DNA from: Promethearchaeota archaeon
GTDB lineage: Archaea; Asgardarchaeota; Lokiarchaeia; Sigyniarchaeales; SOKP01
Length of the DNA: 62,666 nucleotides
NCBI GenBank assembly: GCA_030603385.1
Contig: JAUVXW010000027.1
Span: forward strand, 1-62,666
Direction of reading: 5' to 3'
Shown here in pieces: positions 30,383 through 32,049 of this stretch. The notes under the pieces are model-generated. The model had not been told where the DNA came from. It saw only the letters and a list, made by a program, of their open reading frames with translations, and searched no databases. The position numbers and the translations under genes are program-made. Numbering within the stretch: the first letter of the stretch is position 1; every line of letters starts with the position of its first letter.

Positions 30383-31189
30383 ATGAAGGATGAAATTGTC
30401 ATACTTGGATCTGGTGGAGGAAGGCATCATATCCGAACTCAGCATCGTGCTACAGGGGGTTTCTTATTTAAATTCAATGGAATACAAGCTCATATAGATC
30501 CTGGACCTGGAGCAATGGTTAGACTCACTCAATATAAGGAGGATCCTGTTAAAACTGAGCTGTTTGTCGTAACTCATGCACATGTAGATCATTACAATGA
30601 TATTAACGCAATTATAGAAAGTTCAAGAGAAATAATACATGATAAGAATTATAACTACTATAAAAAGGGAATATTAATTACCACTCTTGAGGTGATTAAT
30701 TTAATCCAAGAATATCATCTGAATATGCTTGAACAAATCGTGAGATTTAAAGCAGGTGATAAGCTGAATTACAAAGGTGTTGAAATTGTTGGAACTAAGG
30801 CTATTCACTCACCCGTTAATGAAAGTTTTGGCATAAAATTTAATCTTAAAGAATATTCTTTAGCTTATACTAGCGATACTAAGGTATTTGAGGATTTTTC
30901 GAACCAATTTTCAGGTGTAAACATTCTTATTCTCAATCTTTTACGTCCTGATTCTATAACTTGTAAAAGGCATTTATGTACTGATGAGGTTATTCCTTAT
31001 TTAAATAAAATCGATCCACCATTAGATTGTCTGATTATAACTCATTTTGGCTCCTACATGGATGGTCCACGCTCAAAAAGGAATTTTGTTCCAAGTCAGG
31101 TAAACAAATTGCAGGAACAAACAAATATCAAGAAAATAATTGCAGCTGAAGATGGGTTAAAATTAAAAATAGATGAGTTAATAATCTAA
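30383..31189 (+). CDS. MBL-fold metallo-hydrolase
   Basis: LGSGGGR, IDPGPG, THAHVDH, YTSDT, ITHFG. Confidence 0.88.
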   Translation: MKDEIVILGSGGGRHHIRTQHRATGGFLFKFNGIQAHIDPGPGAMVRLTQYKEDPVKTELFVVTHAHVDHYNDINAIIESSREIIHDKNYNYYKKGILITTLEVINLIQEYHLNMLEQIVRFKAGDKLNYKGVEIVGTKAIHSPVNESFGIKFNLKEYSLAYTSDTKVFEDFSNQFSGVNILILNLLRPDSITCKRHLCTDEVIPYLNKIDPPLDCLIITHFGSYMDGPRSKRNFVPSQVNKLQEQTNIKKIIAAEDGLKLKIDELII

Positions 31190-31259
31190 TCTACAAAGTC
31201 TTCTTCTTAATTCTTAAAGGAATTGCCATCATCTAAGAGAAGTATATTTTAAAAGAAAA

Positions 31260-31410
31260 GGCAAGGGAAAATAGAAATCCGCGCCAAATTAATAAAATCA
31301 GGGAGAGAATTAAACTCAAGAGAGTTTAATAGAGGGCATAATCAGAGCCGAGAAATCCGGACTCTTGAAATCCAATGTTTACGCAGATTATCTAGTTAAA
31401 TTTCCCTTCC
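31260..31410 (-). ncRNA. Candidate ~150-nt structured non-coding RNA
   Basis: 5'/3' ends pair (AAGGGAAA/UUUCCCUU, UAGA/UCUA, AAUCUGCGU/GCGCGGAUU); two internal hairpins; upstream TTTTTAAA; downstream U-tract. Confidence 0.6.
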
Positions 31411-31432
31411 TACATTTAATTAGGATTTCTAC

Positions 31433-31440
31433 TTTAAAAA
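31433..31440 (-). promoter_or_regulatory. Putative TATA box of the ncRNA candidate
   Basis: TTTTTAAA about 23-30 nt upstream of the predicted 5' end; weak in an AT-rich background. Confidence 0.4.
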
Positions 31441-32049
31441 TCAACTGATTATATTTTATATATGTTCTTATATAACGTAATATGAATATACACAAAAAGA
31501 AATGGTTTTTATAACAAATAATATTCCAAAATTATTATCGCCATTAGTTCAAATTACGACAAAATCTAATTTAATTTCTTTAGTATATTGATTTTTATTT
31601 TGAGTTATACAGAGATTTAATTGTTATGATATAAATATAGTAAACATTTCAAAATATTATTCAGCAGAAATCCAGTGGCGACAAACGATACATTGAAGGA
31701 TTTGTTGAAATTCAATTTCATTAGAATTGTTAGTACGAATTTTTCTCGTGATCATTACATTGCCGCACTTATTACATATAGTTAGGTCTTTTGGTTTTAA
31801 TTTAGGTGCGGACACGTATCATACCACAGTTATCTGATTATTCGAATTAAAAATTCAATTACAAAATTTACCTATTAAAATATAGTTTTGCCGATAAAAC
31901 AACCCTTATTTAGAATATTAATAACTTTTTAATTATTTAAATATGTTTTTTAGTAAAAATTTTTAGATTTCCGTATATATTAAGTTTTAAATTATACTAA
32001 AAATGAGTCAAAATGAAGATTCTATGCAAATTCAAACTATTTAACTTGT

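Follow-up and report, generated by a model that had tools for sequence, protein, structure and literature searches.

Bulge-helix-bulge (BHB) introns are known from the tRNA and rRNA genes of archaea and from the crenarchaeal cbf5 pre-mRNA. Among small RNAs, sRNA41 of Methanosarcina mazei masks ribosome-binding sites, and the 6S and CsrB-type RNAs act as decoys that sequester proteins. Asgard archaea are the closest prokaryotic relatives of eukaryotes. To our knowledge almost nothing is known about their regulatory RNAs, and we know of no 6S RNA in any archaeon.

The locus described here belongs to a Promethearchaeota archaeon (assembly GCA_030603385.1, contig JAUVXW010000027.1) and was analyzed within a stretch of 62,666 nucleotides, called the window below. 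It contains a real, uncatalogued small RNA (sRNA) gene that is kept by most of the genomes searched in one family of Loki-type Asgard archaea. Judging from its sequence, the sRNA probably needs splicing in this genome before it can work. An Rfam scan, proposed in an earlier note on this DNA that was made from the sequence alone, was run on the window and matched no family. In the whole window nothing scores above threshold in Rfam 15, and at E<=10 there are only chance matches, to sau-13 and RT-7. A literature search found no published description of the sRNA.

The gene, its locus, and its relatives

The gene lies on the minus strand, and its parts in the window are the following.

31433..31440, minus strand: TATA-like box TTTTTAAA, read from the sequence, its center about 26 nt upstream of the RNA 5' end
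31261..31411, minus strand: precursor RNA gene, 151 nt, with limits from the covariance model (model R1; 137.6 bits, E 7.7e-26)
31367..31411, minus strand: exon 1, comprising the 5' strand of each of P1 and P2 and the initial part of the invariant loop (AAACAUUGGAUUUC), with the junction taken from intron-less copies
31338..31366, minus strand: predicted intron of 29 nt, BHB (HBh') type, site B, from comparison with intron-less copies
31261..31337, minus strand: exon 2, holding the remaining loop (GCCCUCU), P3, the pyrimidine-rich 3' loop strand, and the 3' strands of P2 and P1
31401-31410 with 31260-31270, minus strand: stem P1, GGAAGGGAAA with UUUCCCUUGCC, read from the sequence
31381-31394 with 31272-31284, minus strand: stem P2, UAGA-U-AAUCUGCGU with GCGCGGAUU-UCUA, read from the sequence
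31309..31330, minus strand: P3, a 9-bp hairpin AUUAAACUC-UCUU-GAGUUUAAU, invariant in the genus
31285..31308, minus strand: 3' strand of the internal loop (UCUCUCCCUGAUUUU...), always pyrimidine-rich, with a sequence that differs across genera
31251..31259, minus strand: oligo-T tract UUUUCUUUU, a likely archaeal termination signal

The ends of the precursor are placed by the model, the distance from the TATA-like box, and the T-run. P1 pairs the purine-rich 5' end of the sRNA with its 3' end, and P2 has two G-U pairs on the minus strand that are A-C mismatches on the plus strand. The stems, the 9-bp hairpin, the pyrimidine tracts, the TATA-like box, and the T-run had all been described in the earlier note, and a check of the sequence finds them as stated. 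The note had also assigned the RNA to the minus strand, which folds better (-41.6 kcal/mol, z -3.1) than the plus strand (-35.8 kcal/mol, z -2.5). The GC-richer stretch that it pointed out is present, but the rise is modest, with 0.36-0.38 versus about 0.2 in the flanks. A stretch of 13 nt between the TATA box and the RNA 5' end (GUAGAAAUCC..., 31423-31435) is complementary to the 3' strand of P2 (31268-31280). It may compete with P2 if transcription starts further upstream, or the match may be due to chance.

The predicted fold of the mature 122-nt form is a rod (P1-P2) followed by a large two-sided internal loop and the 9-bp hairpin P3. Its folding z is -4.36, which none of 300 shuffles reaches. 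Both pyrimidine tracts are unpaired in this fold, and the unpaired probability of UCUCUCCC is about 0.9. With relatives included, the structure goes far beyond what chance would give: among 97 distinct copies, each of the 27 modelled base pairs varies in both partners. Paired cells amount to 95.4% in these copies, compared with 82.8% in shuffles (0/500 reach the observed value) and 32-59% with slid partners, in an alignment that was fitted to the model and thereby favors the structure. In distant copies P3 is swapped for unrelated hairpin sequences (for example L149, L147, and L162).

The sRNA has a genuine stand-alone gene, which is presumably transcribed from signals of its own. A TATA-like motif is found at -36..-19 in 85 of 96 distinct family copies, compared with 16 of the 96 at -60..-43, and the upstream block is conserved in the genus alignment. 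The 3' stem is followed by a T-run in 75 of the 96 copies, with a T fraction of 0.64 at +1..+12 versus 0.35 at +19..+30. At the syntenic locus the order is a Ras-like GTPase, an MBL-fold hydrolase, the sRNA, a 52-aa Zn-ribbon gene, and an EamA transporter. Each genome has one copy of the sRNA at this locus, across the genus and into other genera. The sRNA sits between convergent genes, and since no co-oriented gene follows it in either orientation, it is not a leader or UTR. The cassette runs in the same direction as the MBL gene at 28 loci and in the opposite direction at seven, among them the window. The inverted cassettes (7 of 35; L009, L010, L015, L016, and L030-L032) fall in at least three separate groups of relatives. 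Compared with the nearest relative, the inverted segment in the window is about 330 bp long (31190-31520) and comprises the promoter, gene, and terminator. No convincing inverted repeats were found at the borders of the flipped cassettes. The occurrence of the cassette in either orientation at the locus argues against a cis role for the neighbors. An independently transcribed small RNA on the minus strand, as the earlier note had proposed, is supported by the conserved promoter and terminator signals, the covariation, the synteny, and the cassette found in either orientation.

Two of the neighbors deserve comment. The MBL-fold hydrolase gene (30383-31189, plus strand) is the most persistent neighbor of the sRNA across genera. 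Its identification as RNase Z was rejected, since there is weak N-terminal likeness only (43 bits versus a cut-off of 293). The Zn-ribbon gene (31657-31815, minus strand) lies in a gap of 860 bp that had been taken to be free of open reading frames. It encodes 52 amino acids with a CxxC...CxxC pattern and has 61-100% amino-acid identity across the genus and beyond. The gene is confined next to the sRNA to one genus and a few relatives, and a general role as neighbor or partner was rejected because none of the 61 other sRNA copies adjoins it.

As far as searched, the sRNA is confined to one taxonomic family of Loki-type (Promethearchaeia) Asgard archaea. The covariance model, built from 16 copies, detects the sRNA in 12 of 13 genera and 86 of 101 genomes of the family, with one to six copies in each of these genomes. 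When genomes were drawn from the whole class, 87 of 102 in this family had the sRNA, and 0 of 18 in five other families did. The earlier suggestion to collect homologs and look for covariation has thus been followed with a positive outcome on both counts (homologs in 86/101 family genomes, covariation in 27/27 pairs). By BLAST, relatives are present in nearly all genomes of the same genus. At least 119 DNA stretches of public genomes contain an 18-base core of the loop, and nearly all of these stretches are labelled Promethearchaeota or Promethearchaeia. About six bacterial matches to this core among public genomes are as many as chance predicts, and there are none in viral contigs. The family is ready for Rfam, with covariation support, clear gene boundaries, a syntenic home locus, and retention by most of the searched genomes of a large group of uncultured archaea.

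In some genomes extra copies are arranged in tandem and have flanks in common, unlike dispersed insertions; contigs break there because of the arrays. Intron-less secondary copies share flanks in several genomes (L098-L101 in G012, L112-L115 in G018, and L102-L107 in G082 and G093), which suggests that they repeat head to tail about every 330 nt. In G012, four contigs end exactly within an sRNA copy, so copy numbers from draft genomes are underestimates. Truncated copies with the 3' half only lie 1-2 kb from the intact syntenic copy in two genomes (L041:419-562 in G005 and L116:101-240 in G107). One of these two retains the 3' part of the intron, and both look like decayed duplicates. The genome of the window has a second, shorter copy, found by BLAST at C54:78638-78761. 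Upstream of this copy is a gene for a small membrane protein with a C-terminal zinc ribbon (C54:78181-78477), which is repeated with its 3' flank on the same contig without the sRNA (C54:72850-73166 and 65725-65937). Overall, the orientation flips and tandem arrays point to an autonomous cassette whose dosage varies between species.

The insert in the loop

The loop reads CAUUGGAUUUCGCCCUCU without interruption in 55 of 101 copies. Inserts of 29-52 nt are found in 33 distinct interrupted copies, at two sites that are 3 nt apart: after GGAU in 23 copies and after GGAUUUC in 10. When the junction is placed according to the intron-less copies, all 33 form a central helix with 4 of 4 bp and 3-nt bulges on both strands. 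Among control junctions slid by 1-8 nt, 3 of 528 (0.6%) give the same central helix and bulges. The intron side of the central helix covaries, reading CCAA, CUGA, or CCGA at one site and GAUU, AAUU, or GGUU at the other. An inner helix of at least 2 bp abuts the bulges in 24 of the 33 copies. It is offset by 1 nt in seven introns at the upstream site (site A), and two introns are without a clear inner helix. The outer helix of the full hBHBh' motif is formed by neither exon side. The remaining arrangement corresponds to the HBh' class, which was reportedly defined by Marck and Grosjean. This class is counted as canonical BHB, and scoring rules for it have been given (10.64898/2026.10.13.758758).

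In the window copy, the central helix pairs exon GAUU (31369-31372) with intron GAUU (31340-31343) through two A-U and two G-U pairs. The bulges are UC/A and AU/G, with the slash at the junction, and the inner helix AGAG(U)CCG/CGGCUCU lies directly beside both. Removal of the insert joins GGAUUUC to GCCC and gives the 18-mer that is uninterrupted in 55 of the 101 copies. A precise intron-less allele exists in G060, and the exons are otherwise nearly identical in G111 and G088. The genome of the window encodes two EndA paralogs (PF01974) of about 200 aa (C44:18795-19019 and C9:36254-36502). A pattern of two paralogs has been linked to an (alpha-beta)2 enzyme with broad specificity, described as common among Asgard genomes, and the pair found here is consistent with such an enzyme (10.64898/2026.10.13.758758).

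The insert thus has the marks of an archaeal BHB intron, namely the central helix with its bulges, a flanking helix, a restored sequence, and a host endonuclease, and we infer that it is spliced out. The hairpin AGAG-U-CCG/CGG-CUCU, earlier described as part of the RNA, is instead predicted to be the inner helix of this 29-nt intron (31338-31366). The earlier length of about 150 nt agrees with the precursor (151 nt) but not with the predicted mature RNA: because the inner hairpin would belong to a tRNA-type intron, the mature form should have about 122 nt. If this sRNA is spliced, the substrates of the archaeal protein-only splicing pathway include a small non-coding RNA as well. Splicing might act as an on-switch, given that the intron interrupts the functional loop and that two sites there are used independently. 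An intron-bearing sRNA would also be a compact substrate for studying the specificity of Asgard EndA.

Mode of action and rival explanations

In at least 12 genera the 19-nt loop strand ACAUUGGAUUUCGCCCUCU is constant, in contrast to the stems, P3, and the opposite strand of the loop, and the loop therefore appears to be the working part of the sRNA. The explanation that we prefer, with moderate confidence, is a stand-alone sRNA that is spliced from a precursor with its own promoter and acts in trans through the invariant loop. In this genome a TATA promoter would drive a precursor of about 151 nt, in which the invariant single-stranded loop is broken by the 29-nt BHB intron. The archaeal tRNA-splicing endonuclease (the EndA paralogs) and a ligase would remove the intron to give the 122-nt RNA. 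The 19-nt strand of the mature RNA would base-pair with other RNAs, with assistance from the pyrimidine-rich opposite strand. The unspliced precursor would be inactive, since the GAUU of its loop would be tied up with the intron. The gene with its fold and conservation, the promoter and terminator signals, the geometry and junction of the intron, and the presence of EndA are observations, and transcription, splicing, trans action, and pairing are deductions.

Among candidate partners, the tRNA T-arm is the class that scores best, ahead of ribosome-binding sites. Read as its reverse complement, the loop resembles a ribosome-binding site followed by AUG, and GGAGG is enriched 5.6-fold upstream of starts in the same genome. 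Strong duplexes with start regions number 281, 95, and 25 at three energy cut-offs, compared with up to 240, 78, and 30 for shuffles; the advantage of the real loop over shuffled ones is marginal. The strongest two candidates among start regions, C48:27000 and C33:19067, were discarded, as neither is a conserved core gene. No long antisense target for the loop was found in the genome. The best 14-nt match, near C34:28054, was set aside because it lies inside a DUF362-like coding sequence, downstream of the likely start. A two-strand target in H/ACA style (GGGAGAG..AGAGGG) gave one irrelevant match in the genome. Complementarity to the RNase P and SRP RNAs is unremarkable. One match to 16S h44 (-19 kcal/mol) is at background level; the rRNA of this genome is unassembled, and that of its relatives is largely masked.

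The match to the T-arm is post hoc, as one of several target classes tried, and it is a lead rather than a finding. A 13-nt core of the loop is nearly antisense to T-arm positions 49-54 and 57-62, with U55-C56 left out. For 18 tRNAs predicted by ARAGORN the mean duplex energy is -13.3 kcal/mol, compared with -8.1 +/- 1.6 for shuffles (2/400 reach it). For 50 T-arm-like sites it is -11.0, compared with -7.2 +/- 1.0 (0/300 reach it), and this weakens to 9/300 when the C-run is kept in the shuffles. Pairing in a fixed register averages 9.5 of 12 positions over the 50 sites, compared with 5.1 +/- 1.15 for shuffles (0/2000 reach it). These values would fit a general anti-T-arm RNA in which the core GGAUUUCGCCCUC pairs with positions 57-62 and 49-54, U55-C56 is bulged, and many tRNAs or pre-tRNAs are bound simultaneously. 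The loop U residues would then face tRNA positions that alternate between A and G. We consider such a role quite unlikely. It would require the T-stem of a folded tRNA to open, and it leaves the invariance of ACAUU unexplained; a protein-binding site would explain the full invariance equally well. If it is true, the sRNA might keep the T-arm open while interrupted pre-tRNAs are processed, or it might sequester tRNAs or mark them. Control of its activity would then lie with the splicing enzyme that also matures tRNAs, and the sRNA would be an unprecedented kind of tRNA-directed RNA.

The invariant loop might also dock a lineage-specific protein instead of acting as antisense, either to sequester it or as part of a small ribonucleoprotein, a reading that we regard as possible but unlikely. 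Nineteen absolutely invariant nucleotides over at least 12 genera exceed what a base-pairing seed usually needs, no convincing RNA target was found, and the rod, with its large two-sided bubble and apical stem, recalls the general outline of 6S RNA. Against this reading, no candidate partner gene co-occurs with the sRNA: the Zn-ribbon gene is absent beside the 61 other copies, and TROVE is absent from the 13 genus genomes searched. C/U-rich unpaired tracts around a hairpin are, moreover, typical of pairing RNAs. It is improbable that the insert is a lineage-variable extra hairpin kept in the mature RNA, which in the window would then work at about 151 nt. Against retention, the BHB geometry is exact at both sites, 3 nt apart, and both restore one joined sequence; this is so in 33 of 33 copies versus 0.6% of slid junctions. 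A retained insert would bury four invariant loop bases, precise alleles with and without the insert exist, and 29-52 nt is a typical length for archaeal mini-introns. Retention gains some credit from the commonness of expansion hairpins among structured RNAs, from the two G-U pairs and the missing outer exon helix in the window copy, and from splicing being a prediction. A spliced RNA that acts in trans through its loop is the reading that we prefer to both.

The remaining explanations are much less probable. The earlier note had likened the sRNA to Y and vault RNAs, and the size, the paired ends, the pyrimidine-rich internal loop, and the Asgard host would suit a component of a eukaryote-type ribonucleoprotein. 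The comparisons made here do not support this likeness, which is extremely unlikely to reflect kinship. There is no Rfam match even at E up to 10, TROVE/Ro60 is found in 0 of 13 genus genomes by a search that detected the positive control (Deinococcus), and the Vault repeat PF01505 is likewise found in 0 of 13 by a search with no positive control detected either. The conservation pattern is also inverted, with an invariant loop and terminal stems that covary freely. A non-autonomous mobile element (MITE-like repeat) or its remnant is very improbable. Up to six copies in some genomes, several at contig ends, truncated copies near the main copy in two genomes, and at least three inversions of the cassette could be read as signs of mobility. 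However, one copy stays at a syntenic locus across genera, compensatory changes keep the RNA fold on one strand, the promoter and terminator are conserved, and viral contigs have no matches. A count of copies, proposed earlier as the way to exclude a MITE, gives one to six per genome; the extra copies are in tandem arrays with shared flanks rather than dispersed, and the borders of the cassette have no terminal inverted repeats. The position between two convergent genes and the recurrence of the same neighbors would suit a cis-acting element of one of these genes, such as a leader, a riboswitch, or part of a 3'-UTR. This too is highly unlikely, since the sRNA has no co-oriented gene downstream in either orientation, has its own TATA box and T-run, and occurs at unrelated loci and in tandem arrays.

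Known classes of RNA were also considered. The earlier note had held that the RNA is not a tRNA, 5S rRNA, SRP RNA, RNase P RNA, or C/D guide, and none of these identities withstood testing. The mature RNA has the same length as 5S rRNA, but it is a rod with one hairpin and not a three-way junction. Genes resembling 5S, with CCGAAC and GGGA motifs, lie elsewhere in this genome (C27:49161-49336) and at separate loci in G024, G023, and G006. The RNase P and SRP RNAs were rejected because they lie elsewhere in the genome, on C26 and C15. ARAGORN finds no tRNA or tmRNA in the window. A box C/D guide was rejected for want of a C box, and the CUGA of this genus is CUAA, CUCA, CUUA, or UUAC in other genera. 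There is no ACA after P2, as an H/ACA guide would have, and a K-turn (UGGAU with CUGAU) was rejected because its GA is not conserved. In this genus the 5S and SRP RNAs, with scores of 25-32 and 58-76 bits, fall short of the Rfam gathering thresholds. ARAGORN finds 18 tRNA genes in the whole 3.9 Mb genome (G000), none of them within the 62-kb window, and many probably escape detection because of non-canonical introns.

Comparison with known systems

The sRNA resembles Y and vault RNAs in its length class (about 100-150 nt), paired termini, and pyrimidine-rich interior. It differs from them in having an invariant loop and variable stems, with no Ro60 and no Rfam match. Like 6S RNA, it is predicted to fold as a rod that opens into a large, two-sided bubble at its center and bears a stem at its apex. 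The sRNA is much smaller, its bubble strand is invariant in sequence, and the likeness is one of outline.

LhrC1-5 of Listeria, RsaE of Staphylococcus and Bacillus, and sRNA41 are also small stand-alone RNAs with unpaired C/U-rich tracts beside a hairpin. Like them, the sRNA is multicopy and tandem in some genomes, and its tracts contain CCUC and CUCC, which are complementary to the GGAGG core. It has no sequence or Rfam relationship to any of them, and its host is an archaeon, in contrast to those of LhrC and RsaE. The introns and the invariant stretch of 19 nt also set it apart, and its enrichment for start regions is marginal.

With the archaeal BHB introns, the insert shares a central helix of 4 bp that is flanked by two bulges of 3 nt, one on each strand. 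It also shares an intron-internal flanking helix, a length of 29-52 nt with no ORF, and EndA paralogs in the genome. A limited literature search found no published case of a BHB intron in a small regulatory-type RNA. The host here is an RNA of that type instead of a tRNA, rRNA, or mRNA, and the predicted intron is without an outer helix between the exons. A further difference is that the intron occupies either of two sites, 3 nt apart within one invariant loop, with the same predicted product.
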